A stretch of DNA of 64,000 bases from Dictyostelium discoideum (GCA_000004695.1 CM000155.2:992001-1056000); one strand, 5' to 3'; positions 21,913 through 56,990 are shown, counted from the first letter of the stretch. Numbers and translations: made by a program. Notes: generated by a model from the letters alone, not told the origin.

Positions 21913-21985
21913 TGCTCGATGCAGGGATCGAACCTGCGACCGTGGCGTTATTAGCACCACGCTCTGCCGACTGAGCTAATCGAGC
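21913..21985 (-). tRNA. tRNA-Ile (anticodon AAU), 73 nt
   Basis: GCTCGAT-TA-GCTC-AGTCGGCA-GAGC-G-TGGTG-CTAATAA-CGCCA-CGGTC-GCAGG-TTCGATC-CCTGC-ATCGAGC-A. The acceptor stem is 7 bp and perfect, and the D, anticodon and T arms are canonical. Confidence 0.9.
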
Positions 21986-22320: not shown

Positions 22321-24654
22321 ATGAAAGGAAGAGCAAATCCAAAGAATGTTAAACCAACAAGTGGTAAAAAAGTTACAAAAAAGTTAGATAAAGGTGGAAA
22401 AGGAAATAATAAACAACAAAAATTAAAACAACAACAACAAAAACAACAACAACAATTACCAAAAACCAATAACCCAATTTTACATGCACAACAACAACAA
22501 ATTAAAAAAGATTATCAACATAGACCAATTAATATAAAGAAAAAACATGCAAATGATTATAGTAGAGTAAATTCAGATGAACGTTTAGAAGATGTAGATG
22601 ATATTTCATATGAAGAGTATAGACAATCTGAAATCAATACAAAGTTACGTGTTAAAGATCATGTTTTCGAAGGTGGTGATGAATTTGATAATTTTGATAT
22701 TTTAAATTCAGATGATGATTGCTTTGGTGATAATATTTTTGAATTTGATACAGCAGATTATGGAAGTACTGATTTCTTATCAGATGATCAAATCTCTCAA
22801 TTTAAAAGACAATTAAAAAAAGATAATATTTCAAAAGAGTATCATTTAAAAGATCAAAATGATAATAATAATAATAAAAATAAAAAAAAGAATAAAAATA
22901 ATAATGATGATGAAGACGATGATGAAGATGATGAAAATAATAATAAAAATCAAACTAAATTATCAAAAAAAGAAAAAGAAAGAATTAAACAAGAGAAAAG
23001 ATTACAAGAAGCTAAAGAAATTCAATTTAAAGAATTACCACCAATAAAGAAAAGATATTGGAAAGATACAATGAAACAGTTGACAAGTGAAGATCATCGT
23101 GAAATGCGTATTAAAATCAAAGCAAATGTTAGTACAAGTTTCGATGGTCAAGAGATACCAAGACCAATAATAACATTTGAAGATCAAGATTTACCATTGT
23201 CAATGAAAAAGTTTATTGGATTTCTTACAACTAAATATCCATCGATTACAGCACCAACACCAGTTCAATCACAATGTTGGCCAGGTATTTTAAGTGGTCA
23301 AGATATTTTATCGATTGCTCAAACTGGTTCAGGTAAAACATTGGGTTACCTATTACCAGCGATTCCAAACATTTTAGAACATTTACGTCAAAGGAAAATC
23401 AGACGTCAACAAATGACAATGCAAGAGAAATTAGAGAATAAAAAGAAATCAAAGTTATTAAAAAATACAAATATGGGACCAATGGTGTTAATTATCGTAC
23501 CAACTAGAGAATTGGCAAAACAAGTCGAATCATCATGTAAACCATTGCGTTCAAAGTTTAACATTCATTCAATCGCTATCTATGGTGGTGTTGATGCAAA
23601 TGAACAAAAAGATATTCTAGGTCAAGAACATAATGAAATCATCATTGCAACACCGGGTCGTTTGGTTGATTTAATTCAAAGATCAAAGGAAGTCGTTGGT
23701 TTATTGGGTGGTGTTGGTATGTTAATTCTTGATGAAGCCGATAGAATGTTACAATTGGGTTTCGGTGATCAACTTCAAAAGATCTCTGAACAAATTCGTC
23801 CAGATCGTCAAACTCTTATGTTTTCTGCAACTTTTCCACAAACTATGCAAGATGCCGCCAAAAAATGGTTAACAAATCCATTGAAAATTAGAGTTAAATC
23901 AAGTTCAACCAATCAAGGTAGCACCTCAATCATCTCTAAAAATGTTAAACAAGTGGTTAAACCAATCGCTGAAAAAGAGAAATCAAAATATTTAACAACT
24001 TTCATAAACTCAATTATGAAGAAAGAACTATTACTTAGAAATAGAAGTTTAATTTTAATCTTTGTAAATACTATTAAATCGGTTAAACCAATCCTAACTG
24101 TAATCGAGAAAATGTGTGACCAATTTCGTGAAAGAAAATATAAATGTGGTGCAATTCATGGTGATATGAAACAATTTGAAAGAGATTCAGTCATTGATAA
24201 CTTTAAATCTGGTAAAATCTCAATTTTGGTTGCAACTGATATCCTTGGTAGAGGTATTCATATTGGTGGTAATCTTAGATTCGTCATAAACTATGATTTC
24301 CCATCATCCTTGGAACAATATGTACATAGAGTTGGTAGAACTGGTAGACAAGGTAATAAAGGTCATGCTTTAACTCTATTCACTGATACTCCACAAAATA
24401 CTCCAATGGCAAGAGGTTTAATTAAAATTTTAGAAGAATGTAAACAACAAATCTCTCCTGATTTAATTAAATTGGCTGATAATTTTAATGGTATAGTTTC
24501 AAATGAATTTGATTCCATTAAAAAATTATTAGTAAATCAAGAGGATCAAGATGATGAAGAAGAAAATGTTGATCAAGAAATGAATGATATTAATCAAAAT
24601 GATGATGATGATGAAAATAATAATTTTAATTCTGATGATTCGGATAGAGATTAA
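22321..24654 (+). CDS. DEAD-box ATP-dependent RNA helicase with a Lys-rich N-terminus
   Basis: Motifs 'AQTGSGKTLGYLLPAI', 'PTRELA', 'TPGRLVDL', 'DEADRML', 'SAT', 'HRVGRTGR'. Confidence 0.9.
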   Translation: MKGRANPKNVKPTSGKKVTKKLDKGGKGNNKQQKLKQQQQKQQQQLPKTNNPILHAQQQQIKKDYQHRPINIKKKHANDYSRVNSDERLEDVDDISYEEYRQSEINTKLRVKDHVFEGGDEFDNFDILNSDDDCFGDNIFEFDTADYGSTDFLSDDQISQFKRQLKKDNISKEYHLKDQNDNNNNKNKKKNKNNNDDEDDDEDDENNNKNQTKLSKKEKERIKQEKRLQEAKEIQFKELPPIKKRYWKDTMKQLTSEDHREMRIKIKANVSTSFDGQEIPRPIITFEDQDLPLSMKKFIGFLTTKYPSITAPTPVQSQCWPGILSGQDILSIAQTGSGKTLGYLLPAIPNILEHLRQRKIRRQQMTMQEKLENKKKSKLLKNTNMGPMVLIIVPTRELAKQVESSCKPLRSKFNIHSIAIYGGVDANEQKDILGQEHNEIIIATPGRLVDLIQRSKEVVGLLGGVGMLILDEADRMLQLGFGDQLQKISEQIRPDRQTLMFSATFPQTMQDAAKKWLTNPLKIRVKSSSTNQGSTSIISKNVKQVVKPIAEKEKSKYLTTFINSIMKKELLLRNRSLILIFVNTIKSVKPILTVIEKMCDQFRERKYKCGAIHGDMKQFERDSVIDNFKSGKISILVATDILGRGIHIGGNLRFVINYDFPSSLEQYVHRVGRTGRQGNKGHALTLFTDTPQNTPMARGLIKILEECKQQISPDLIKLADNFNGIVSNEFDSIKKLLVNQEDQDDEEENVDQEMNDINQNDDDDENNNFNSDDSDRD

Positions 24655-24885: not shown

Positions 24886-26043
24886 ATGTTAGAATTAAGA
24901 TTAGGAACTTGGGAACAATTTAAATTAAATACTTATTCAAATTATCCAGAATGGGGTGATTCAATTAATATTGAACATTATTGGGAAAGAGAAAGAGTAT
25001 CAAAAGATTGTGTCACTGGACATAGACCATGGATTTTAGTTGATAGTGAACAACCTGATGAAATTTTAGCATCATGTGAATCATATACTCAAGAATCACC
25101 ATATTGTTTAAAAGGAACCAATGAAATTAAATATGGATTATCAGAATCAATAGCTAGTGTTTTCGTTGAACCAAAACATCGTAATAAAGGTTACGCAACA
25201 AAATTAATGAAACTTATTTATGATAGATTTAAAAATCAAGATAAAAGAATTTTTTGTGAACTCTATTCAGATATCAATCCAATAGTTTATGAGAAATGTG
25301 GTTGGATTCAAAATCCTCCAACTACTTTAAAAATTAATTTAAATGATAATACAACGGTTTCAAAATTTTTAAATTCAATTAATAATAATGACAATCAATT
25401 TGAATTTATAAATGAAAATAATTCAAAACCAGTTACAGAAAGTAATATTGAATTAGTTTTAAAAAAAGGTATTGAACATACTGAAAAAACATTGATTGAA
25501 ATTGCAAATCATAATGAAACTAATTCATCAATTGAATATGTTTTCTCAAAACAATTTACAAAATCCGAATTTTATTGGGAAATTTCTCAAGCTAAACTTT
25601 ATTCAACTATTATTGAAGGCTTTGAAGCTCCAACTGTATTTGGTCATTGTATTTTAAATAAAAAAGTTGATGAATTAAAAGATTTTAATGATGTAAAGAG
25701 TTTTATTGTTTGGACTTTTGATTATAGAGAAAAATGTTTAAAAATTTTAAAATTATTTGCAGATTCAGAATTAGATTTTAAATTTTTATTAAAGAAATCA
25801 TATGATCAAGCTTTAAAATCAAATCTCCAATCAATTTTAGCATGGTGGCCAAAATCTTCAAATGATAAATTTAAAAAAGAATTTGTTGATTCAATTAATC
25901 AAGAAATAATTATTAGAGATGGTTCAATTCCAATGGTTACATCTTGGATTAATTTAAATGGTAATAATAATAATAATAATAATAGCTCAACTGATATTAA
26001 TAAAGGTATTTGGATAAATGTTGAAAAATTTGGTTGGGTATAA
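24886..26043 (+). CDS. GNAT-like acetyltransferase-domain protein
   Basis: 'FVEPKHRNKGYATKLMKLIYDRF' matches GNAT motif A (R/Q-x-x-G-x-A). Single ORF of 385 aa. Confidence 0.5.
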   Translation: MLELRLGTWEQFKLNTYSNYPEWGDSINIEHYWERERVSKDCVTGHRPWILVDSEQPDEILASCESYTQESPYCLKGTNEIKYGLSESIASVFVEPKHRNKGYATKLMKLIYDRFKNQDKRIFCELYSDINPIVYEKCGWIQNPPTTLKINLNDNTTVSKFLNSINNNDNQFEFINENNSKPVTESNIELVLKKGIEHTEKTLIEIANHNETNSSIEYVFSKQFTKSEFYWEISQAKLYSTIIEGFEAPTVFGHCILNKKVDELKDFNDVKSFIVWTFDYREKCLKILKLFADSELDFKFLLKKSYDQALKSNLQSILAWWPKSSNDKFKKEFVDSINQEIIIRDGSIPMVTSWINLNGNNNNNNNSSTDINKGIWINVEKFGWV

Positions 26044-26380
26044 AATAAAATTTATAAATAAAACATATTTAAAACCTGTTTTTTTGTTTTTTTTTTTTTT
26101 TTTTTTTTTTCAAAATTATATATATTTATTTAAAAAAATTTTATAATATTTATTTATTTCGTGTAAATATAAATATAAATAAGTTGTTATTATGAATTAG
26201 GAATTAAGAATTAAGAATTAAAAAACATTTTTTTTTTTTTTTTTTTTGTATTTTTTTTTTTTGTATTTTAGTTTTTTTTTTGTTGTTACAAAAGCTTTTT
26301 TAAAAAAAAAAAGGTTAAAGAATAAGTTAGAGAGTGGGTTTGAGTTGGGGGTTTTTATGGATTTTCAAAAGTTATTACTG

Positions 26381-28982
26381 CTAATTGGGGCTAGTATAAA
26401 TTGGATTTTCACCACCTGATGGATTGCTTTCATAAAGTGGATTGGCATTTGATGTGGCCATTGTAACACCTTGACTTGCTTTCCAGTAGTCATAACCTTT
26501 CTTACCAGCAAACTAATTAAAGAAAAAAAAAAAAAAAAAAATTTTAATTAATAAAACTGTTTTAATAAAAAAATAAAAAAAAAAAAAAAAAATTAAGACA
26601 TACAATAAAGACACCAAGTGCAATTGCACCACCAACAGCAACACCAACAGCAACACCAACTGAAACAACAGCAGCAGTTTTACAAATGAATGGTTTTGGA
26701 TCGAAATCAACAGACTCACAAGTACCTTCTTCAGTTGCAGTTGCATTCTTACAAATACCAGCTTGACATCTACCATTATCAGCAGCACATTTCTTTTCAA
26801 ATTGAATACAACCAACTATTTCATCACATTCAGCAACTAAACAGAAAGCATCAGCTTTACAAACACGTGGTTCATATTTACAACCAACACCTGGAACACA
26901 TTTACCAACTTGACATTTACCTTTGGATGGACAAACACGTGGAGTTTCAACACAACCTTTTTCAGTATCACAAGAATAAACCATACAAACATCACCTTTA
27001 TCACATTCTGTGGTTGGTTTTGATGAACAATTACCATTGTTAGTGGCTTTATCAAGAAGACAAACTTCAGTGGTACATCTATTACCATCATCACATTTCT
27101 TGTCAACTGGATCACAATCACCAGTTACACCATTACAAATAGAACAACCACCACATTTATTTGAAAGAGTGTGGGTAATAACACCGGTTGTTTCATCACA
27201 TGCATCAATGGTACATGGATTTTTATCATCAATTTCAAGACTTGGTAATGGTTTACATGAACCATCTGCATTACATGATTTAATTTGACATTTGTTAAGT
27301 TTACCATCACATTGACAATCACATAGATTAGGTGGGATGGTTGTATTCTTACATTCTCCAGTTGAGACTTCACAGAATGAATTTAAACATGGATTGTAAT
27401 TTTCAGATTTTTGTAGACATCTTGGTTTCTTGGTACAACCAACATTTGGATCACAAGAGTATTCATAACATTTATCTTCAACACCTTTATCCAATTCATC
27501 AATACAAATTTTACTATTCTTGGTTTCACATTTTCCATCAACACATGCACCAGTTGAACAAACATCAGTACAAAGATTCTTAAAGATACAACCCAATCCT
27601 GAATCACAATGATCTTCTGCTTTACATGAATTTTGTGGAATACATTTTGTAATATTTGTTACAAAGATACCAGTTGAAACATTACATTTACCAGTATTAC
27701 ATTTATCAGTAACACTCCAGTCAGTTGGTGTTCTATCTTGATGACGACAATTTGCTGAAATATCTTTTAGATCAAATACAGCGGTTGGCTCTGGACAGCT
27801 AAAATTAATAAATTATTAATTAAAATTAATATTTATTATTAATTAAAAAAAGAAGAAATGTTAAATTTTTTAAAAAAAAAAAACTTACAGATCAATTGTA
27901 CATGGATTACCATCATCACAATCTCTTGTAACATTACAACAACTTAAACCATTACCAGTACATACACCACAGAAATCATACCATGGACATTGAAGTTCAA
28001 TTGTTGTTTCAATACGAATTGTTGATCTTGAAGTATGTCTTTCACAATAGAAGAAATCAATTACATAGAGTTTATTAACAACAAGACCAAGTTTAGTAAG
28101 ATCAATAGTTTTCTCTTGAGCAATATGTAAACCACCCAAATCTACAACCAACTTTCTATCAATGAATACCCAAACATCATCATCACCTACGAATCTAAAT
28201 GTTTCAAAACCTTTGTATGTGAAACGACTATTGGTAATTTTGGCACAGAAGTGATAATTATGATATGGTTTTGGATTTGCTTTACTTTCATCATCATAAT
28301 AGTTACGGAATTGTTGATCTACATCAAATCCTCTTCCATCAACTAATTTAAAATAAAAATAAAAATAAAGTAAAATATTAATATTAAAATAAAATTATTT
28401 AAAAATATTAATATTTTTATAAAAAAAAAAAAACAAATGATTTAAAAACTTACTTGGGAAAAATTCTTGATTATCATAAAAATAATTTGATTTATCATCT
28501 AAATTCATTGTAAGAGTAATATCTAATGGATAATTTTTACCACTATTGTTTCTATCTGGAGCATCAGAATTATCAGCGAAAAAGTATTTAAATAATTCTG
28601 GTGAATAAATACGACCTTGTTTATTGACAGTTGTAAGATTTGACATTGTGGTTAACTCTGGAATACCAGTGGTTTCATTTAGAATTGATTTTACAAGATT
28701 TACTGTTAAAACACCATTTTCAGGTTCAAAATTGTTATTATATTTTGGATGTTGATCGAAAATTCTTAAATTAAAATCTTGAGTTTCTATAATTTGAAAA
28801 AAATTAAAAAATAAAATAAAATAAAATAATTAGTAAGTTTCTGACTTTGATTTTTTTTTTTTTTATTAGATCAATGATTTTATATAATTATTTAATTTTG
28901 ATTTCATACTTTTCATTTCAACTGCTAGAGTGGTAGAAATAAAAAGAACCACACAGTATAAAAATATGAAAGTCTTTTTCAT
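26381..28982 (-). CDS. PA14-domain, Cys-rich type-I membrane glycoprotein (psi-family-like) with a cytoplasmic tail bearing two NPxY motifs; 5 exons: join(28982..28910, 28786..28454, 28342..27889, 27798..26604, 26512..26381)
   Basis: Signal peptide 'MKKTFIFLYCVVLFISTTLAV'. PA14 segment '..GDDDVWVFIDRKLVVDLGGLHIAQEKTIDLTKLGLVVNKLYVIDFFYCERHTSRSTIRIET'. Many CxxC / EGF-like Cys repeats. TM 'VVSVGVAVGVAVGGAIALGVFIVC' followed by GTATGT. The last exon reads 'FAGKKGYDYWKASQGVTMATSNANPLYESNPSGGENPIYTSPN*'. Donors are GTATGA, GTAAGT, GTAAGT and GTATGT. The total is 2187 nt. Confidence 0.7.
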
Positions 28983-29121
28983 TTTATTATTATTTTTGTG
29001 TGTGTACGTTTTTTTGGTGTGATTTATTAATTTCAATTTGTTATTATTATTTTTATTATTATTAATTATTATTTTTATTATTTAAATGATTGAAATTTTT
29101 TTTTTTTTTTTTTTTTTTTAT

Positions 29122-29156
<35 letters not shown>

Positions 29157-29933
29157 CTTAATAAATAAAATTGTTTTTTTTTGGTTTATTTTTAGATGTT
29201 AATTATATTTTTAAATAAAAAAAAAAAATTAATTGGTTTTTATTATTGTTTTTTTTTTTTTTTCTTTCATGTAAATAAATTAAAAATAATAAAAAAAAAA
29301 ATTAAAAAGTTAAATAGAAAAAAAGAAAAAATAATGATAAAAAGCGTTTTAAATTGATGATATGGTACATAATTATCACAATAAAAAAAAGAAATATTTA
29401 TTAAAATAGAAAAAAAACACACATTTAAAATAACCCCACTTTCAACCACCACCATCTTATTTTTTTTTTTACATATAAATATTTTTTTTTTCTGCAACAA
29501 TGATCATATCATTTTTGTTTGGGGGTTATTTTTATTGTGTGAGTGGGGTGAAATGTTTTTTTTTTTTTTTTTTTTTTTTTTTTTCTTTGTACAGAAAGAA
29601 AAAACAAAATTGGGTATTTAATATTAAAGAGTGTGGCATGGATGTTTATTATATTAATTCCGATAATTGAAAATTTAAATTAACACACACTCTCTCACTC
29701 ACACAAAAAATAACAACAAACAACAATAACAAAATAAAAAATAATAAAAATAATGATATTAAAAATACCAATATTTGCCAACCCCCACTGAAATAACAAC
29801 AACCCACACCTTTCTATATTAGATAGAAAGGTTCTATTTTTATCTACATCATAGAATCGAGATTTAAATATGATAAGAATAATCATATTGGTAATTTTTC
29901 TTTCCAACCGACATATAATCCACCAAATTAACC

Positions 29934-29964
<31 letters not shown>

Positions 29965-31223
29965 ATAATAAAAATAATAAAAAAAAATAGAAAAATATAA
30001 AATATAAATAAACAAAAAATATTTTAAATTAATAAGGACAAAGTACATTGGGGTATTTATTTGAATTTTTTTTTTTTTTTTATTATTTTTTTTTTTTGAT
30101 AATTTAAATATAGAAATGATAGAGAGGTTAAATAATGTTTTGCAATCTGGATTTATGGTGAGATATTGTGCATGTGTGTTTAAAATTATATATATTTATT
30201 TATATATTTTTTTTATTTTTTTTTTTATTTTTTTTATTTTTTATTTTTTCATTTTTGAATGGGTGGTGAAAACGCATCTTCACAAAACCAAACATTACAA
30301 AATTGTAATTCAAATAATATAAATCTATATTTTTTTTTTTTTTTAATTATTATTTTTAATTTTTATTAATAAATTAACAAAAAAAGTAATGATAATATTT
30401 TTTAAAAAAAAAAAGTCAATTTAAAAGATGGCGATGGTAATATTTTTTGTAAAATTCAAATAAAAAAAACAAAAAAAAAAAAATATTATTGAAAATATAA
30501 AAAATAAATAATATTTTTTTTATGTTAATTAACAACCAACCATAATATCGACTTTTTTTTTTTTTTATTATTTTTTATAATCCGATTTTTATTTTTTTTA
30601 TTTTATTTTCTTAATTGATTTTCTGAATATTTGTTTTTTTTTTTTTTTTAATTATTTATAAATGAATTAAATTTTATGCCTATATTTAGAATTGTTTTTG
30701 AAACCATTGAAAATTATTAAAAAAATTTATTCGAATAGATATTTTCAAATTTAAATTACGATTTTTTATTTTAGTTTAAAAATTGTAAACAATTATTTTT
30801 AACTAAATTAATAATTGTAATTTTATAACGTTATAAATTATTAATTATATACAAACACTTCAAAAAAAAAAAAAAAAAATATCAACAACAAGTTATTTTT
30901 TTTTATATTTAATTAAAGTTTTTGTAATATTGAAAAAGTAATTTTTTTAATTTTAATATAACTATTATAATTATTTTCTTTTTATTTATTTATTTTTTTA
31001 TTTATTTATTTATTTATTTATTTTGTGGTTTTATTTTTTAATTTAAATTAATAAAAAAAATAAAAAAATAAAAAAATAAAAAAAAAATTATTACCCATTG
31101 AAATTAATTTGTAAAAATACAATTATGTTTATTTAAATTATTTATTTAGGAAATTTTTTATTTTAAAAAAAAAAATAGTTATGATAACAAATTTGTTATT
31201 ATACATTTAATGATTTTGGTTGG

Positions 31224-33099
31224 TTAAGCATTAATACCGATTCCAATACCTAAACCAAAACCTTTTTTACCTTTATCATCACATTTACATTTATCACTAA
31301 CTACTCTTTCTTGACTGCAGAAACCTGTATATTGATTACAAACTGGTTTAAGACATGGGTCATTACCTTGTTTACATTTATCAGTTTTTATACAACCTTT
31401 GATTGGATCACAACTATAGGTTTTACATCTATCAAATTTATAACCATCAAGTTCTCTTTGACAATCATCACAATCCTTCTTTTCACAATAAGTTTTACAT
31501 GAACTTAATTTTTCACATTTTCCACATTGTGGTACTTTTGGAGTTTGTGTTGGTTTTGGTGTTGGTGTTGGTTTTAGTGTTTTTGTTGGTTTTGGTGTTT
31601 TAGTATGTTCAGTGCATGTTGGTGTTGGTTTTGGATGTTTTGTACATGTTGGAGTTGGTGTTGGTTTTGGTGTTTTGATATGTTCAGTACAAGTTGGTGT
31701 TGGTGTTGGATGTTGAGTACAAGTTGGAGTTTGTGATGGAGTTTCGGTTGGGGTTTGTGATGGTGTTTCAGTTGGGGTTTGTGATGGTGTTTCAGTTGGT
31801 GTTTGAGTTGGTGTTTCAGTTGGTGTTTGAGTTGGAGGTTCATAAATACAACCTGTATTTCCGTCACAGCCAGTATTAATTAATCCCTCTTTTTCAACAC
31901 AAATTGTTGCATTTAAAAACCAACTACCAGTGGTTGAATTACAAACACTTTCAAAACATTTATCACTTACTAATGGATCTGGAGTTGGGTGATGTTGACA
32001 ATAGAAACTAATTGGAAGACTTGGGTCAATGACAGTGTCTGATGGTGGGCAAACATCATTTGTGCATAAATCATCATCATTACAATCTGTTATTGGATTG
32101 CAACATGTACTACCATCACCATTACAAACACCACAATAATCATACTTATCACAATATAACTCTAATGAAGTTTCAATACGAATTGTTGATCTTGATGTAT
32201 GTCTTTCACAATAAAAGAAATTGAATGGATAAACTTTACCAACTGTTAAACCGAGTGTTGAAAGATCGACAGATGAAGATGCAGCTGGATGTGTACCACC
32301 CAAATCAACGACTAATTGTTTATTAATAAATACCCATACATCATCATCACCAGTGAATTTAAATGTTTCATTACCTTTAAATAAAAAACGATTATCAAAT
32401 TGAAAGCAAAAATGATAATTATGATATGTCTTATTTGTACTTTCATCATCTTTATAAATACGATTTGCTGGATCTGTATCAAAACCTTCATAATCAACTA
32501 TAGTTTAATAAAAAATAGTGTTTTTAAAAATTAGTTTTTTTTAAATAGAAAATATTCTTTTAAATAAAAAACAACTTTTAATTTTTAATAATTTACTTAC
32601 TTGGGAAAAAGAAATCATTATCATAAATATAATTACCACTTGCGGTTCTTAGTAATTTAAGTTGTTTTTTAATTGGAAAATTTCTACCACAATTGAAAGT
32701 TGTATTTGAAATTTGATTTGGAGCAAAGAAATATTTAAATAACTCTGGTGAATACATTCTACCATTTTTGTTTGAATATGTTAAATTTGAATATGAATTT
32801 AAAACTGGTAAACCATCAGATCCCAATGTTGTTTGAACTAAATTCTTTGTTAATGACCCAGTTTCTGGTTCAAAATTATTATTATACAATGGAAGTTGAT
32901 CATAAATTGTAATGTCAACATCAAGATGTGCTATTATTAAAAAAAAAAATGAAAAAAATAAAAAAAAAAAAAATTAGTTTTACAATATTAATTTTTTAAA
33001 AAATATAATTGAATAATAAAAAAACATACTTGATGGGGTTTGTGTTAATACAATAGTTTTATAAAATGTTAAAATAAATAAATAAATTAATAATTTCAT
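31224..33099 (-). CDS. PA14-domain Cys-rich secreted or surface protein with a Thr/Pro-rich linker, paralog of 26381..28982; 3 exons: join(33099..33030, 32930..32601, 32497..31224)
   Basis: Signal peptide 'MKLLIYLFILTFYKTIVLTQTPS'. Exon 2 '..NKNGRMYSPELFKYFFAPNQ..' and PA14 '..GDDDVWVFINKQLVVDLGG..VYPFNFFYCERHTSRSTIRIETS' parallel the neighbouring gene. Linker repeats '(PTETPSQT)n'. There is no TM; the C-terminus is 'GFGLGIGIGINA'. Confidence 0.7.
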
Positions 33100-35244
33100 T
33101 TTTTTTTTTTTTTTTTTTTTTTTTATTATATATTTCAAATGTTTTTTAAAAATTAATAAATAACCAAAAAATAAAAAAATGTTTTTAAATATTTATAATT
33201 ATTATTACTATTATTATTATTTGTTTAAAAAAAATATGGAATTTGAAAAAAAAAAAAATTCTTTTTATAAATAATTTTTTTATATTATCCAATAGAATTT
33301 TATTTAAAATAAAAAAAAAATATTTTAATTCTAAAATCGGCTCAATTGATAATTTATTGAATATTTTGATTTTTTTTTTAAAAGTACCAACCCACATACA
33401 TTAATTTGGGATTTATTATAAAAATAGTTTTTTTTTTTTTTTTTTATTTATTTTTATCTGCCTCTATATATAAAATATGTGGATTATCAATATGTTTATA
33501 CTTTAATTTTTTTAAAAAAAATCAATTTAAATCTCAATCAATTTGAACCACAAACCCTCTCTCTCCTTTCCTACTCTAAGAAATTGGTTTTAGAATGAAA
33601 AATTATATTGTAATTGAGCACACACACTCACTCTATATTGTAGGTGGTATAAAATAATAATATTATTTCATTTTTGATGTTTTTTATAAATTAATAAAAA
33701 AATTTTGTATAGTGTTTTTATAATTTTTATCTTAGTAATGTGGTAATAGAAAAAGAAAAAATGTGTGTGTGTTTTTTTGTTTTTTTTTTTTAAAAAGTAA
33801 AAACATAACAAAATTGTGTGTTGTTTTTAAATTTTTTGATTTTTATTGTTATTGTTTTCTTATTGTTATCATAATTTAAAATTATTTTTAAGGTGGGAGG
33901 TTTTTTCACCTCTAAAAAAAAATTATCCCTTATTATTAAATAAAGAAACCTTTTAAAACCGTTTAGCCCCTAATTTAAAAAAAAAAAAAAAATCCAAAAA
34001 AAAAAAAAAAAAAAAAAACCCCTTAAATCGTGTTATTGGTTGGTAATTGAATTATATTATATTTAAAAAAAAAAAAAAAAAAAAAATATTAATATAAAGC
34101 AAAGATTCAATTAAGATTTGATTATTCCTTTCGTTTTATAAAATTTAATAGATTAACAATGTGTTTTTTTATAACCCTACCCCCAAGAAAAAAAAAACAA
34201 GGAAATTAATCACACACATACACAATGCTTGTTTAAATTATCTTTGTGATTATTAAATCTTTTGTAATCTAAAACCTTTTATTTAATAGATAATTTTTTA
34301 TAAAAATCTAAAATATTATTAAATATTTTCAATCGATTTTGATCATCGATCATTATTAGATTTTGGGTCTTTATTTTTATTATTAATTTTTGTTTCTTTT
34401 TATTTAATTTAATTTAATATTTATTTTATTTTATTTTAAAAGCCAGTGATTTAAAGAAATTATTTCAAAAAAAAAAGATAAAAAATTAATAAAAAAAAAA
34501 AAAAAACTATATTAACAACTTCATGAAATTAGTAAAGATAAAGGTTTTTTTCATTGAAAATTTTAATTTTAAATTTTTTTTTATTTTTACTTTCAATTCA
34601 AATAAATCAATTTTATCTAGAAATATTTTTTTAAAAATTATTTTATTTTAATTTGACAAGATAAAATAATAATAAAAAAAAAAAAAAAAAAAAAAAAAAT
34701 TATAATTTAATAAAAAAAAGAAAATAAAAGAAAATTAAATTAAAAAAAATAAAAGAAAATAAAAGAAAAATAAATAGTATAAGATAATTCATTAATACTT
34801 GAGAGAATGAACAATTGGTTGTTTTTTTTTTTTTTCTCTAAATCAACAATGATAACAATTTAAAAAAAAAAAAATAAAGAATTTAAAATTTATTTTATTT
34901 TGTATCTTAATAAATTAATTTAGTATTTTTTTTTTGCTATAAAGAAATTTAAAGATGTAACTATCATTTCCAAAAAAATTTGAAAGTATAAACACAATCA
35001 AAGAAAAACAATTTTTTTTTTTTTTTTTTTTTTCAAGGAAATTTTTTCAAAAAATAAAAAATATCTTTTTAATGAGCTCGAAATTTATTTCAAGCATTTT
35101 CTTTTTTTTTTCCCATCTAATTTTTTATTTAAAATCAAAAATAATTTTTTTTTTTTTTTTTTTTATAATCTCATTTTTTTTATTTTTTTTTAAAAACAAA
35201 TAAAAAACAAATATATAAATATAAAAAAAAAAAAAAAAAAAAAA

Positions 35245-38001
35245 ATGTTTAGTAGTATAACAAGTAAATTATCAGCAATTTCAGGTGGATCAAGTAAAAA
35301 TGATTATAAAGAAGCAAATTATTATAATTATTTTAGAATTTTAGAAAAGAAACAAACTGAAGAGATTGCAAGAAAAAGATGTGGTTTATATAGTTTAAAA
35401 AATCATAATAATGTATTTGTTTTAAAAGAGTTTTCAATTGAAACTGAAATTAATGATTGTAGTTCAACATCAATTTGGACACAAAGCTATTCAAATGATT
35501 CAAATACACCAGTCGAGGCAAAGTATCAATTACCATTACATCCAACATCGGTTGTATCAAATTTTCAAATTGAATATCAAGGTAAAGTAATTCAAGGTAA
35601 AATCAAAGAGAAAGAGAAAGCATTAGAGAAATACAATGATGCAATTGCAAGTGGTGGTCAAGCATTTATGGCAACAAAATCAGATGACGGTTATTTCAAT
35701 TTAACACTTGGTAATTTACCACCAAAAGAGAATGTTAAAGTTAGAGTTGTAATCTCATCAGAGTTGGGTACACATACCGATGGTCAATTACATTATTGTC
35801 TTCATCGTTATATGTTCCCATCTTATGCATTCAATTTCAACTATAATGTAGTTTTAAAATTTTCAATTCCAATTAAATCGATTGATTGTGATGGTTTTGA
35901 TGTAAATGTAAATTATAAAGAGAATTCAAGTAAAAAAGAAGCAAAAATCACATCAAAATCACAGCATACAAGTGGTGTTAAAAAGAATATAATTTTAATT
36001 ATTCAACCTGTTGAGCTAAATGAACCAAAATCCATGATTGAATATATTGGTGGTGGCGATGATAAATCTTATGCAACAGCAATTAATTTTTATCCATCAT
36101 TCAAGAATGTTAATCCAGATGAAGTTTATCAAAAGAGTGAATTTATTTTCTTAATTGATTGTTCTGGTTCAATGAGTGGTCAATCGATTAATAAAGCTAG
36201 ACGTGCTATGGAAATTATTATTAGATCATTGAATGAACAACATAAAGTAAATATCTATTGTTTTGGTTCATCTTTTAATAAGGTATTCGATAAATCAAGA
36301 GTTTACAATGATGAAACCTTAGAGATTGCAGGTTCATTTGTTGAGAAAATTTCAGCAAATTTGGGTGGCACAGAATTATTACCACCAATGGTTGATATTC
36401 TTTCCTCTCCAAATGATCCAGAGTATCCAAGACAAGTTTTCATTCTAACCGACGGTGAAATCTCTGAAAGGGATAAATTAATTGATTATGTAGCAAAGGA
36501 AGCAAATACAACTCGTATCTTCACCTATGGTATTGGTGCTAGTGTCGATCAAGAATTGGTTATTGGTCTTTCAAAAGCATGTAAAGGTTATTATGAAATG
36601 ATCAAAGAGACTACCAATATGGAGAAACAAGTAATGAAGTTATTAAATGTTGCATTTGAACCAATGCTTTCAAATATTAAATTGGATTGGTCATCATGTG
36701 GTCTTGTTGATGTCATTCAAGCACCTTCTCACATTAGACCACTTTTCAATCAAGAGAGAATGATGATCTATTCAATGATACCATCAAATCAAACCAATCA
36801 AGATATCATCAATGCCTCTATTGAGACTTCAAAACCATTAATAATCACTTTAACTGGTGATGGTCCAAAAGGTAATGTTTTATCATTCCCAATCACTTTA
36901 GATTTTAAAAATGATCTTTCTACAAATTCAAATCAAATTCATACTCTAGCTGCTTTTAAACATATTCAAGATCTTGAAGAAAGTGAAAGAAAAGAAAAGA
37001 AGGATAATAAAGATAAAATCGTTGAATTGGGTAAGAAATATGGTTTAGTTTCAAAACATACCTCTTATATTGTTACCGCTGATTCTGATAATGTCACTGA
37101 AGAAACAATGAAAACTGTTGACATTATGAATCAATCACCTCCTATTCGTCCTGGTGGTCGTATTGTTTCTAGAGGTGGTGGTAGAAGTGGTGCTAGTGGT
37201 GCTTTATCTTCAAGTATTTTGTCAAGAAAACGTTCATCCTCCCCATCTACTGCTACTAAACGATCTTCTTCATCTTCATTTTCATCTTCATATTTATCTT
37301 TATCATCTTCATCCCAAAAGAAGAAAAAAGAAGTTAGTAGAAGTGATGATGATGACGATGATGAAAAAATAGAAAATTGTGTTGAAAGTTATGAAAGTGA
37401 CGGAGGTGATCAATCAAGTGAACAAGATGAAGAAGAAGAAGACGATTGTGATGATTTCCATGAAGATCTAGACGAAGATTTAGGTGCTACCGCAATGGAT
37501 GTTGATAAAAAAGAATGTGAAAAAGAATGTAAAAAGAAAGATTCTTCAAAAGTTGACCTTAAAGTCAAACCTTCAAAAGTACCTCTACCATCAAGATCAC
37601 CTTCAGTTTCAAAACCAACAACAACATCACTACTTTCTCCATCTCCAAAATCAGCACCATCAGCACCATCACAACAAAAATCAGTTAAAAGTACTGGTGA
37701 TTTATTAATTGATTTATTAAAAATTCAAAAATCAAATGGTTCTTGGACAAAATCTTCTATTGATCAATTGAAAATCCCAACTGACAAAGCACCTGCCGAA
37801 TTATCAACTACTGAATTAAATGACATTTGGGTAACCATTATCGTTATTGCAAAGATTGTAAAATTCTTCTCATCTGAAAAAGCTCAATATGAACTTGCAA
37901 TTCAAAAATCAACAAGATGGGTAAAACTTCAATTATCGAAATTAAATCTTCCTGAAAATACTTTTGATAAATTTTTATCAAACGCTAAATCATTAGTTTA
38001 A
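35245..38001 (+). CDS. VIT + von Willebrand factor A domain protein (VWA5A / ITI-heavy-chain-like)
   Basis: VIT N-terminus ('..NYFRILEKK..VEAKYQLPLHPTSVVSNFQIEYQGKVIQGKIKEKEKALEKYNDAIASGGQAF..'). VWA MIDAS 'FIFLIDCSGSMSG'. Acidic/Ser-rich linker. Conserved C-terminal block shared with 54109..56990. Confidence 0.8.
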   Translation: MFSSITSKLSAISGGSSKNDYKEANYYNYFRILEKKQTEEIARKRCGLYSLKNHNNVFVLKEFSIETEINDCSSTSIWTQSYSNDSNTPVEAKYQLPLHPTSVVSNFQIEYQGKVIQGKIKEKEKALEKYNDAIASGGQAFMATKSDDGYFNLTLGNLPPKENVKVRVVISSELGTHTDGQLHYCLHRYMFPSYAFNFNYNVVLKFSIPIKSIDCDGFDVNVNYKENSSKKEAKITSKSQHTSGVKKNIILIIQPVELNEPKSMIEYIGGGDDKSYATAINFYPSFKNVNPDEVYQKSEFIFLIDCSGSMSGQSINKARRAMEIIIRSLNEQHKVNIYCFGSSFNKVFDKSRVYNDETLEIAGSFVEKISANLGGTELLPPMVDILSSPNDPEYPRQVFILTDGEISERDKLIDYVAKEANTTRIFTYGIGASVDQELVIGLSKACKGYYEMIKETTNMEKQVMKLLNVAFEPMLSNIKLDWSSCGLVDVIQAPSHIRPLFNQERMMIYSMIPSNQTNQDIINASIETSKPLIITLTGDGPKGNVLSFPITLDFKNDLSTNSNQIHTLAAFKHIQDLEESERKEKKDNKDKIVELGKKYGLVSKHTSYIVTADSDNVTEETMKTVDIMNQSPPIRPGGRIVSRGGGRSGASGALSSSILSRKRSSSPSTATKRSSSSSFSSSYLSLSSSSQKKKKEVSRSDDDDDDEKIENCVESYESDGGDQSSEQDEEEEDDCDDFHEDLDEDLGATAMDVDKKECEKECKKKDSSKVDLKVKPSKVPLPSRSPSVSKPTTTSLLSPSPKSAPSAPSQQKSVKSTGDLLIDLLKIQKSNGSWTKSSIDQLKIPTDKAPAELSTTELNDIWVTIIVIAKIVKFFSSEKAQYELAIQKSTRWVKLQLSKLNLPENTFDKFLSNAKSLV

Positions 38002-52808: not shown

Positions 52809-52891
52809 TGCAAGAGGCGAGATTCGAACTCGCGAACCGAATGGATGAGATCTTAAGTCACACGGATTTAACCAGACTTTCCTACCCTTGC
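52809..52891 (-). tRNA. tRNA-Leu (anticodon UAA), type II, about 83 nt
   Basis: GCAAGGG-TA-GGA-AAGTCTGGTTAAA-TCC-G-TGTGA-CTTAAGA-TCTCA-(long variable arm TCCATTCGGTTC)-GCGAG-TTCGAAT-CTCGC-CTCTTGC-A. The acceptor stem pairs at 7 of 7 (one G-U), the T arm is canonical, and the anticodon stem has one U-U mismatch. Confidence 0.75.
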
Positions 52892-54108: not shown

Positions 54109-56990
54109 ATGAATTTTATTAAAAAAGTAATTGGTGGTGGTAGTAGTAAAAGTAAAACCGATATTAAAATTGAAGATGAACAACATGAACAACAACATGA
54201 ACAACAACATGAAAAACAACAAATTCCAGATAAAATATCAACAAGTAAAGTAAATTCACCATGTGTTCCACCAACTTGTACATACATTTCAAAAGAAAAT
54301 GTTAGATCAGATTTATCATTAATTAAAGATTTCAATTCAGCCTATTACTATAACTATTATAGAACATTGGAAAAGAATTCCACTAATTTATTAACAAGTC
54401 CAGGTTTAAATACTAAAGTTGTTAGTAACCAATTTACATTAAAAGAATTTAATATTGTTTCAGAGATGACAGATTCATGCATTGTTTCAGTATGGACTCA
54501 GAAATACTCTAATCTATCATTGACACCAGTTGAGGCAGTCTATCAAATCCCATTAGCACCATATGCTACAGTTTCAGATTTTTCTGTAATCTTGAAGGAT
54601 AAAGTATTAAAAGGCAAAATCAAGGAGAACGAAAAGGCCAAAGAGAAATACAACGATGCCATCGCAAGTGGCGGCCAAGCATTCCTTGCTGAAAAAGTTG
54701 AAGGTTTCTTTAAATTACAAATTGGTAATTTACCACCACAAGAAGATGTAACTGTAAATATCACAATTACCTCTGAAATCGGTACACATTTAGAATCATT
54801 ACATTTCTGTTTACATAGATTCATTTTCCCAAAAAGTGCATTCAAATTCAATTATACATTGAATGCATCCCTTTCAACTCCAATCGAAACCATTGAAATG
54901 GATCATTTCCAACCAACCATAACCTACAAAGATGAATCAAAAACAAATGCAACCGTTACAATTTCAACAGAAAATGGTGTTTCAAATAATATCATTGCAA
55001 TTATTGTTCCAAAATATTCTGAAAAACCTGAATCTTTTATTGAATATTCACCAATTGATAAATCATATGCTCTTGCTATTAACTTTTATCCAAAATTCAG
55101 TGTTGGTCTTGATGAAGTTGATCAAAAATCTGAATTTATTTTCGTATTAGATTGTTCAGGTTCAATGTCTGGTAAACCAATTGAAAAATCAAAAATGTAA
55201 TTATTATTATTATTAAAAATATAAATATATCAATTTTAAATTAATTATTAATATTTTTAAATTTTTATTTTTTTTATAGGGCATTAGAAATTTGTATGAG
55301 AAGTTTAAATGAAAATTCTAAATTTAATATTGTTTGCTTTGGTAGTAATTTTAATAAATTATTTGAAACTTCAAAACATTATAATGATGAAACATTACAA
55401 AAAGCAAGTGAATATATTAATAGAATTGATGCAAATTTAGGTGGTACAGAATTATTAGAACCAATTGTTGACATTTTATCAAAAGAAAGTGATCCAGAAT
55501 TCCCAAGACAAGTTTTCATTTTAACTGATGGTGAAATTTCAAATAGAGATAAATTAATTGATTATGTTGGAAAGGAAGCAAATACAACTCGTATCTTTAC
55601 CTATGGTATTGGTTCTTATGTTGATAAAGAGCTTATTGTTGGTGTTTCAAAAGCATGTAAAGGTTATTATGAAATGATTGTTGATAACTCTGATATGGAA
55701 GAAAAAGTTATGAAATTAATTAGTATTGCAATGCAACCAACTCTATCAAATATTAAAGTTGATTGGGGTGTTCTTTCAAATGTAGTTCAATCACCTGCTC
55801 AAATTAGACCATTATTCAATCAAGAAAGAATGATGATTTATGCAACCCTTGATAAAGAGCCAACTGAAAAACAAGTAACTGTCATTCTAAGTGGTAATGG
55901 TCCATTGTCTGAAAGAATTTCATTCCCAGTGGATTTGGATTTCAGTAAAGCAAATCAATCAACTAGTCATATTCATACTTTATCAGCTTTCAAACATATT
56001 CAAGATCTTGAAGAAAGTGAAAGAAAAGAAAAGAAGGATAATAAAGATAAAATCGTTAAATTGGGTAAGAGATTTGGTTTAGTTTCAAAACATACCTCTT
56101 ATATTGTCACTGCTGATTCTGATAAAGTAACTGAAGAAACAATGAAAACTGTTCAAGTTTTAGAACCAACTCAACAAATCAATACCAGTCCTGGTAGTGG
56201 TAGTGGTTTTATTCCAACAACAAGAGTTCAAGGATCATCATCAGTTTTCCCATCCTCACCAACACCTTTGTCAGGCCCATCACCATACACAGTCTGTGCA
56301 CCACCACCACCACCACCAACATCATCACCATACACAAACTGTGCACCACCTCCACCACAATTTTCCAGATGTATTGCACCACAACCATATCAAAGTGCAC
56401 CAGCACCACCAGCACCACCAGCACCATCAAGACTTTCTCAAGCACAATCACAAATGGATTATTGTGATCAAGAATTATTATGTGAAAGTTTAGAGGGTGA
56501 TTTATTAGTTGAAGAAGAGGAGCTAGAATGTAAGGAAATAGAATGTTCACCACCACAAAAATTAAGTTATATTACACCATTTGCACCAACATCACAAATT
56601 AGTCAATCATCAAGAGAATGTAGATCTAAAAAATCCTCTTCTCCAACAATACAAAAATCATCATCATTACCATCAAGACCATCAACATCATCTTCATCAT
56701 TAATTGAAATTATTCGTCAACAAAAAGCAAATGGTTCATTCACAAAATCATCAGTTTCAAGCTTTATTAATGTTGATACACCACCACCATCATCAGATAT
56801 TCCAGAAGATGTTTGGACAACTCTTTTAATCATTGCAAACTTTATCTTAAACTTTGATTCACAAAAGAGTCAATGGGAATTAGTTTCACAAAAAGCTACT
56901 AAATTTGTTAAACAACAAATTATTAAATCTTCAATCGCTTCAACTTTTGAAACCCTTTTAGAATCTGCTAAAAAATCAATTTCAAATTAA
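54109..56990 (+). CDS. VIT + VWA domain protein, paralog of 35245..38001; join(54109..55196, 55280..56990)
   Basis: Same architecture: '..AVYQIPLAPYATVSDFSVILKDKVLKGKIKENEKAKEKYNDAIASGGQAF..', MIDAS 'FIFVLDCSGSMSG', then the intron (GTAATT..TTTATAG) splitting 'KSKM|ALEICMRSLNE' (compare 'KARRAMEIIIRSLNE'). Pro-rich linker; conserved C-terminal block. Confidence 0.8.

Follow-up and report, generated by a model that had tools for sequence, protein, structure and literature searches.

The psiK-psiA gene pair of Dictyostelium discoideum: a psi-family membrane protein whose two-NPxY tail looks like those of integrin beta chains, and its secreted paralogue

Dictyostelium has, to our knowledge, no integrins, and its talin-coupled adhesion is currently credited to five Sib proteins. 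By published description, these proteins (SibA-E) have a type I topology, a glycine-rich transmembrane (TM) helix and a short cytosolic domain with two NPxY motifs (PMC9197732, PMC3279395), together with a head that contains a VWA domain and bacterial-type repeats. In SibA both of the NPxY motifs bind talin A, with the membrane-proximal one being essential (PMC9197732), and the TM, which contains five Gly, makes delivery to the surface dependent on Phg1A, at least five Gly being enough for this in reporters (PMC4510845). The present analysis concerns two neighbouring genes, psiK and psiA, in a stretch of 64,000 nucleotides of D. discoideum DNA (GCA_000004695.1 CM000155.2:992001-1056000; the whole of this stretch is referred to as the window, and positions are counted from its first letter), and in particular the cytoplasmic tail of PsiK. 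PsiK resembles the Sib proteins in topology, in its glycine-rich TM and in its short domain with two NPxY motifs, but the heads of both PsiK and PsiA are of the PA14 type with no VWA in Pfam, and the psi-type tail extends across Amoebozoa, whereas Sib proteins have been reported from Dictyostelia only (bioRxiv 10.1101/2020.04.29.069435).

PsiA is known to be a glycoprotein that is secreted and promotes differentiation into prespore cells (PMC11574339), and it is listed among the secreted signals (PMC4931340). It and PsiK are members of the psi family, with which they have in common a signal peptide, a PA14/fibro-slime head, a CGxCxGxGxxCC motif and Cys-rich repeats; no difference from the family exists at the level of the genes, and the TM members PsiF, PsiG, PsiM, and PsiO share the PsiK tail. 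The identity of the two genes was established by joining exons at donor and acceptor sites on the minus strand of 26200-33300 and comparing the products, as strings, with proteins retrieved by a search of a large protein collection. The first product (728 aa) is identical (100%, full length) to Protein psiK of D. discoideum AX4 (P0001) and the second (557 aa) is likewise identical (100%, full length) to Protein psiA, the prespore-cell-inducing factor (P0044). The two genes, their exact models including the tail mini-exon, and their assignment to the family are therefore already public and not new.

The last exon of psiK (26381..26512, minus strand, 132 nt) encodes F686 to N728, FAGKKGYDYWKASQGVTMATSNANPLYESNPSGGENPIYTSPN followed by the stop, that is, the last three residues of the TM and a 40-aa cytoplasmic tail of the form KKGYDYWK...NPLY...NPIY, in which the NPLY (26432-26443, minus strand) and the NPIY (26396-26407, minus strand) stand 12 residues apart. 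The TM residues ahead of this exon are coded by exon 4 (26604-26678, minus strand), and the TM, TAAVVSVGVAVGVAVGGAIALGVFIFAG, contains six Gly. Hydropathy analysis places the hydrophobic segment at approximately 661-688, with a peak from residue 656, and finds no such segment in PsiA beyond the signal peptide. The AF2 model of PsiK, which was built on an alignment of 46 sequences and has a mean pLDDT of 80.4 (above 90 over residues ~30-300), shows a helix at 668-697 followed by a disordered tail; hydropathy and the model agree on a type I, single-pass topology with a tail of 40 residues.

A profile of the TM and tail was run against all 177,635 distinct PDB sequences, with matches counted at E<=10. 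The top five matches were integrin beta-1 (E 0.0044 and 0.0051), beta-1D (0.014), and beta-3 (0.044 and 0.051), and integrin beta chains accounted for 14 of the 24 matches in total, with the tails of beta-7 and beta-2 lower down; NPxY tails of the LDLR or APP type were not among them. In the alignment to beta-1, the TM helix, the first NPxY (NPIY), and the second NPxY (NPKY) are all in register, and the aligned beta-1 sequence shares the 12-residue start-to-start spacing of the psi tails. The tail had been called integrin-beta-like in the first-pass annotation, which was made from the DNA alone, and this gains some support from the PDB search, in which integrin beta tails matched best and had both motifs in register, the similarity itself being marginal. 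On this basis, the psi tail is better described as one that may work like, and that looks like, an integrin beta tail than as its proven homologue. No description of an integrin-like tail in the psi family was found in the literature searched, and the feature appears to have gone unremarked so far, which makes it a lead of modest weight that can be put to the test, and no discovery.

The tail is by no means restricted to PsiK. About 60 of the first 100 homologues end in a C-terminal Gly/Ala-rich TM, the sequence GGKKGYDYWK, some 12 variable residues, NPLY, eight further residues, and a second NPLY. Such tail-bearing homologues span all major dictyostelid groups (Dictyostelium, Polysphondylium, Tieghemostelium, Heterostelium, Acytostelium, and Cavenderia) and are found outside the dictyostelids in Physarum transcripts, in Clastostelium and Planoprotostelium, and in many environmental sequences. 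When 38 diverse tails were aligned, N49, P50, and N61 were invariant, and K29, Y32, and L51 were conserved in at least 90%. The mean identity to PsiK is 89.7% in the KKGYDYWK box, 53.4% in the tail, 50.5% in the TM, 40.6% over the whole protein, and 38.8% in the stalk. Of 222 tails, 204 have their two NPxY motifs 12 residues apart from start to start, 15 have them 13 apart, and the remaining 3 have them 11 apart.

When the TM and tail profile was run exhaustively with HMMER against 1.84 billion representative proteins, 778 of these matched at E<=1e-3 and 273 at E<=1e-10; a word-indexed search with the same profile returned only 38 short unnamed fragments. Many of the matches are metagenome or metatranscriptome proteins of 60-130 aa that hold little beyond the TM and tail, and these are probably terminal exons or fragmentary contigs of environmental amoebae. 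They show that eukaryote data from soil and water are rich in the TM and tail module.

Cluster look-ups within the family found the TM and tail in PsiM, PsiG, PsiO, and PsiF and found the tail to be absent from PsiA, PsiQ, and PsiR. The comparison of the tail with psi-family proteins that had been proposed thus identified both genes as members of that family and showed the PsiK tail to recur in four others. Most proteins of the psi family and of its amoebozoan relatives have the TM with its NPxY tail, and this is also the ancestral condition. The earlier observation that only one gene of the pair has a TM and tail is correct for this pair but marks no peculiarity of psiK, since, with the tail being so widespread, it is psiA that is the exception. 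Tandem arrangement of TM genes of the psiK type was also seen in other species, with three such genes in D. purpureum (locus L001, 6001-8471, 10156-12590, and 13094-14471) and two in Heterostelium album (locus L002, 1-2779 and 3001-5676); the gene mapped in each of these arrays (P0003 and P0025, respectively) has its stalk, TM, and tail in one exon.

The tail of PsiK is separated from most of its TM by intron 4 (26513..26603, minus strand), an intron of 91 nt with the ends GTATGT...TTAATTAG that lies in phase 0 between I685 and F686. The GTATGT intron (26603-26513) behind the TM and the 132-nt exon (26512-26381) had been predicted as such from the DNA, and that prediction proved accurate. It could be argued that the exon is a prediction artefact and that transcripts read through the GTATGT to a stop at 26562, which would leave a short tail, ...VCLNFFFFFLFFY, and an open reading frame of this kind does exist (26562..27596). 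The comparison with the D. citrinum orthologue (locus L003) is difficult to reconcile with that idea: the five exons are 89.7-97.7% identical to those of psiK at the nucleotide level with zero gap columns, whereas the four introns are 52.7-78.6% identical with indels. The best conserved segment is the tail exon itself (97.7%, no indels), and the least conserved is intron 4 (52.7%, 16 gap columns), in which GTATGT...TTTAG is nevertheless kept, and which is flanked by gap-free exons of 89.7% and 97.7% identity.

Moreover, in the psiK-type gene of D. purpureum (L001) and the homologue in Heterostelium album (L002) the stalk, TM, and tail are encoded in a single exon, with the junction ...IFAGKKGYDYWK... 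being uninterrupted, and the spliced D. discoideum junction, ...VFI/FAGKKGYDYWK (the slash marks the intron), matches what is contiguous in D. purpureum (...AAIFAGKKGYDYWK) and in Heterostelium (...VFGGKKGYDAWK). A psiM-type gene (L004 3019/3117, D. cf. discoideum) has an intron at the identical codon boundary, ...AAI/FAGKKGYD, corresponding to 26604/26512 of the window, and the tail is also present in transcript-derived homologues from Physarum and other amoebae. A false splice was rejected on the strength of the D. citrinum conservation, the intron-less homologues, and the psiM-type intron, and the read-through explanation is hardly credible; the comparative evidence thus strongly supports both the splicing and the reality of the tail exon. 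Because the intron is absent from D. purpureum, from Heterostelium, and from psiF-type genes (L005, in which no intron is found at the TM/tail junction), the mini-exon is best explained as the product of a lineage-specific intron insertion in genes of the psiK/psiM type and not as a separate functional module. The idea of a separate tail mini-exon accordingly holds for psiK and does not generalize, being limited to psiK and psiM genes of the D. discoideum group.

The longer matches of the tail profile bring in a further group of proteins. Among 36 such matches, Dicty_CTDC repeats are present in 23, PA14 in 9, and VWA in 5. In the VWA-headed relatives, of approximately 740 aa, a VWA domain in which the MIDAS reads DxSGS is followed by a CTDC stalk, a glycine-rich TM, and a psi-type tail of the form GGKKGYD...NPLY...NPLY, and PsiK is collinear with them from the stalk to the C-terminus (E 1e-19 to 6e-26). 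Six of these members, all from outside the window, were noted (P0230, P0241, P0275, P0278, P0279, and P0307). A profile of the VWA-headed relatives finds PROFUN_10995 of Planoprotostelium fungivorum as well as transcript-derived and metatranscriptome sequences, with no dictyostelid VWA-headed member among the best 120 matches listed. This profile was meant as a route to the Sib proteins, and its matches were swamped by bacterial Dicty_CTDC proteins; no Sib protein is among the matches listed for it or for the TM and tail profile. In these relatives the VWA is of the generic alphaI, anthrax-toxin-receptor, or collagen VI type, in contrast to the PA14 head of PsiK, and the same assignment of the VWA (alphaI/ANTXR/collagen VI) led to the rejection of these proteins as integrin beta orthologues. 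In a preprint, amoebozoan “integrin beta homologues” are described that combine a head of the VWA type with a Cys-rich stalk of the CGxCGG type and a tail with NPxY (10.1101/2020.04.29.069435). The stalk, TM, and tail, which bear either PA14 or VWA heads, would form an old amoebozoan chassis.

The psiA gene (31224..33099, minus strand) consists of three exons (33099-33030, 32930-32601, and 32497-31224, minus strand, with GT..AG at every intron) that make up a coding sequence (CDS) of 1674 nt and encode a secreted protein of 557 aa. Its PA14/fibro-slime coding region (32121..32643, minus strand; PA14 at residues 120-259) spans intron 2, and the gene also encodes a Thr/Pro-rich, mucin-like linker (31538..31842, minus strand), with the translation PTQTPTETPTQTPTETPSQTPTE..., which corresponds to TRF arrays with periods of 12, 18, 24, and 75. 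The description of the second gene as having such a linker and no TM was right, the repeats being found at 31538-31842 and hydropathy giving a signal only at the signal peptide. The short, Gly/Ile-rich C-terminus of PsiA, KGKKGFGLGIGIGINA (window 31224-31270), has the counterpart KGKKGLGIGIGITL in D. dimigraforme. For a TM helix its length and hydrophobicity are insufficient, and it might be either what is left of the glycine-rich TM or a signal for processing. A hidden TM exon further downstream was considered and rejected, as the proteins of D. dimigraforme (P0045) and of another D. discoideum strain (P0047) share the ...GIGIGI(NA/TL) end; reading of the DNA downstream of psiA revealed no coding-looking sequence.

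The head of PsiA has its best AX4 paralogue in PsiK (322 bits, vs 256 for PsiM) and scores 372 bits with the D. purpureum psiK-type gene, and D. citrinum has a gene for a 551-aa protein in the position of psiA upstream of psiK, which makes the pair syntenic. Seen in this light, psiA is probably a derived, truncated, and mucin-linked secreted paralogue of a psiK-like gene. The simplest account of the pair would be a tandem duplication of a receptor gene of the psiK type, after which the psiA copy would have kept the head, lost most of the stalk together with the TM and tail, and gained the repeat-encoded mucin linker. Having lost the TM and tail, its product, the known PSI factor, would be secreted constitutively.

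In the model favoured here, to which a probability of about 0.6 is assigned, PsiK is a receptor with a tail that is read through its NPxY motifs, and PsiA is a secreted copy derived from such a receptor. PsiK would be a type I surface glycoprotein in which a PA14 lectin-like head is held on a rigid, Cys-rich Dicty_CTDC stalk above the glycine-rich TM and the 40-aa tail, and it would most likely connect a ligand outside the cell, which is probably a glycan, with cytoplasmic proteins that read NPxY. Candidate readers of the tail are FERM/PTB-type modules, e.g. those of talin A/B, myosin VII, or the Frm proteins, and the tail may in addition control endocytic recycling and the level of the receptor at the surface. 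By analogy with SibA, delivery to the surface could depend on TM9/Phg1A via the glycine-rich TM, and the ectodomain is possibly shed.

A number of observations weigh against this model, and in particular against its integrin-like aspect. The similarity to integrin beta is marginal (E 0.004-0.05) and resides in the TM helix and two four-residue motifs, such that convergence could account for it. PsiK is without the membrane-proximal HDR(R/K)E motif, in place of which it has KKGYDYWK, and the Trp that precedes the first NPxY in beta tails is without a counterpart at that distance. It also has none of the betaI/VWA head, hybrid, PSI, and I-EGF domains of integrin beta and no known alpha partner, and neither PsiK nor PsiA has a VWA or PSI match in Pfam, the head being PA14. 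The NPxY motif is, furthermore, a generic endocytic and recycling signal. It has to be noted as well that sibA-null cells show no tension on talin A (PMC12686525), from which it would follow that other NPxY receptors do not obviously substitute for SibA in vegetative cells. Psi proteins are not mentioned in the supplements of that talin A study, among which the mass-spectrometry tables may not be included (PMC12686525).

In the main competing explanation, the NPxY pair chiefly serves as a trafficking signal, for clathrin-adaptor endocytosis or for recycling from endosomes, that sets the surface level and the turnover of a receptor of the lectin type, with no mechanical link to talin or actin. 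This explanation draws on the established role of NPxY as the classic internalisation motif of the LDLR type, and on a csA-SibA chimera with the TM and tail of SibA, which shuttles from the surface to early compartments of the endocytic route and back (PMC3279395); the loss of talin tension in sibA-null cells, in which the psi genes are intact (PMC12686525), fits it too. The near-constant 12-residue spacing of the motifs and the profile match to integrin beta rather than to LDLR or APP speak instead for a reader of the integrin type, and trafficking and integrin-type roles are in any case not mutually exclusive. A tail devoted to trafficking is hence regarded as the less likely option, if one to be taken seriously.

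A further possibility is that PsiK is chiefly a precursor, bound to the membrane, from which a soluble signal of the psi type is released by shedding of the ectodomain, the TM and tail amounting to no more than a temporary anchor. PsiF (DicA1) is of interest here, DicA1 being a PA14 protein reportedly described as extracellular in a quorum-sensing study. PsiF has the same TM and tail and is listed as an “exposed signal” (PMC4931340), and soluble family members, as exemplified by PsiA, are active signals. A possible parallel is offered by DPF (DDB_G0289949), a density factor and single-pass protein that is released by shedding of its signal ectodomain and the retained TM/cytoplasmic stub of which acts cell-autonomously on adhesion and growth (PMC6889452); DPF is, at 1483 aa, a protein with no homology to PsiK evident here. 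With a mere anchor, on the other hand, a 40-aa tail and its near-invariant motifs would not have been retained in dictyostelids, Physarum, and Variosea alike, and shedding can coexist with signalling by the tail, as in DPF. The precursor explanation is therefore considered improbable, and a receptor with an NPxY-read tail is preferred.

The psiK and psiA genes themselves being nothing new, it is the tail that may matter. A far-reaching extension, which is put forward tentatively and is on balance doubtful, would be that those psi proteins that have a TM (PsiK, PsiM, PsiG, PsiO, PsiF/DicA1, and their amoebozoan relatives) represent a second, unrecognised class of talin/FERM-coupled receptors, from which the soluble psi factors have been cut loose. 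In that case, a PA14 lectin head would be combined with the integrin-beta-type chassis of stalk, TM, and tail that is used elsewhere with VWA heads; the prespore-inducing and quorum signals would descend from a lectin-adhesion system and might act through it; and the soluble psi factors would comprise PsiA and any shed ectodomains. The tail itself makes at least five PA14-headed receptors of D. discoideum (PsiF, PsiG, PsiK, PsiM, and PsiO) concrete candidates for additional NPxY-read receptors during development. That the nearest solved relatives of the psi tail are integrin beta tails suggests that a TM and tail of the integrin beta style may be a mobile chassis in Amoebozoa, paired with various ligand-binding heads, and the loss of stalk, TM, and tail in a tandem duplicate would offer a simple route from an adhesion receptor to the secreted factor PsiA.

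The psiK gene extends from the ATG to the stop over 26381..28982 (minus strand) and encodes a type I membrane protein of 728 aa in a CDS of 2187 nt, in frame over five exons (28982-28910, 28786-28454, 28342-27889, 27798-26604, and 26512-26381, minus strand) with GT..AG at every intron. Exon 1 (28910..28982, minus strand; GT donor at 28909) encodes the signal peptide (MKKTFIFLYCVVLFISTTLAVEMK.), with a hydropathy peak at residues 3-24 and an AF2 helix at 2-18. Exon 2, the “pre-PA14” exon (28454..28786, minus strand), encodes the N-terminal half of the head, is conserved with exon 2 of psiA, and is modelled by AF2 at a pLDDT of >90 as continuous with the PA14 core. The PA14/fibro-slime core (GDDDVWVF...) and the CGVCTGNGLSCC motif come from exon 3 (27889..28342, minus strand), and exon 4 (26604..27798, minus strand) supplies the Dicty_CTDC stalk, which is Cys-rich, and the larger part of the glycine-rich TM helix, as judged by Pfam, hydropathy, and AF2. 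The intron in front of exon 4 (27888-27799) has no counterpart in psiA and corresponds to the extra intron that had been noticed in the Cys-rich region of the first gene.

PsiK and PsiA are 50% identical across their first ~358 aa, which comprise the signal peptide, the head, and the first Cys-rich module; beyond this they have only isolated Cys-rich repeats in common. A hydrophobic N-terminal segment precedes the PA14/fibro-slime domain in both, according to hydropathy. The Pfam search for PA14 (PF07691) that had been recommended for the pair gave matches in both proteins (E 3.8e-16 for PsiK and 8.1e-35 for PsiA), as did the fibro-slime domain TIGR02148 of NCBIfam (E 1.6e-37 and 2.4e-41, respectively), and, together with the 50% identity, these matches confirm the architecture of signal peptide, pre-PA14 exon, PA14, and Cys-rich repeats that the two genes had been said to share. 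Dicty_CTDC (PF00526) is matched by PsiK in Pfam; PsiA does contain Cys-rich repeats, yet without a Pfam CTDC match at E<=0.01. The CGxCxGxGxxCC-type motif takes the form CGVCTGNGLSC at residue 260 of PsiK and CGVCNGDGSTC at residue 255 of PsiA.

The AF2 model shows the psi head to be a PA14 beta-sandwich, i.e. a lectin-like fold, and Foldseek finds PA14 lectins as its structural neighbours. Two neighbouring Asp residues, D190 and D191, do not vary among 46 family members, and they may lie where lectins such as Flo5 have their DcisD motif for binding Ca2+. The PA14 lectin adhesins and sensors (RTX-adhesin/MpIBP, Flo1/Flo5, Epa1/6/9, Cea1A, and RsgI3) are 10-18% identical to the psi head; the adhesins among them are cell-wall or RTX proteins, whereas the psi head sits on a eukaryotic TM receptor and is a candidate for sugar binding. 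The top Foldseek match in the PDB is the heavy chain, Hgl, of Entamoeba histolytica's Gal/GalNAc lectin (9gjc_H, E 9.1e-8, 378 columns). Hgl, a type I lectin of an amoebozoan, has an ectodomain rich in Cys, a TM of 26 aa, and a cytoplasmic tail of 41 aa for which identity with the tails of beta-2 integrins has been reported (PMC6272351), and it is thus similar to PsiK in topology, in its Cys-rich ectodomain, and in a short tail that has been likened to integrin beta. Searches of the PDB by phmmer with PsiK and with a profile of the full-length family gave no meaningful relative and did not return Hgl, such that Foldseek is the sole basis of this link.

The intergenic region (28983..31223, minus strand, 2241 bp from the stop of psiA to the ATG of psiK), which holds the 3' end of psiA and the psiK promoter, is extremely AT-rich apart from a few GT/CA-rich islands, and the mechanical ORF list contains no notable ORF in it. 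Its length and the common minus strand bear out the original placement of the genes about 2.2 kb apart on the same strand, and the same ORF list does, as had been pointed out, omit the short first exons as well as the tail exon. The window DNA in general is of extreme AT richness, with short GT..AG introns. The GT/CA-rich islands lie upstream of psiK at 29450-29830, e.g. GTGTGAGTGAGAGAGTGTGTG and CACCCCACTCACACA, in intergenic surroundings of ~90% AT, and a palindrome with a 10-bp stem is located at 29808-29832. These islands look similar to the G-box/CAE elements to which GBF binds in Dictyostelium promoters of the post-aggregative stage; a scan of the region between psiA and psiK for bacterial promoters and terminators is meaningless for a eukaryote.

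Downstream of psiK are an ORF for a GNAT/LYC1-like acetyltransferase (24886-26043, plus strand), which is syntenic in D. citrinum (L003 9841-11055), and an ORF for a DEAD-box helicase (22321-24654, plus strand). VWA_3 domains occur in two ORFs of the window (35245-38001 and 55296-56990, both plus strand), the first of which also has a VIT domain of the inter-alpha-trypsin or vault type, and these ORFs appear to be unrelated to the psi genes. The window further contains genes for tRNA-Ile(AAU) (21913-21985, minus strand) and tRNA-Leu(UAA) (52809-52891, minus strand).

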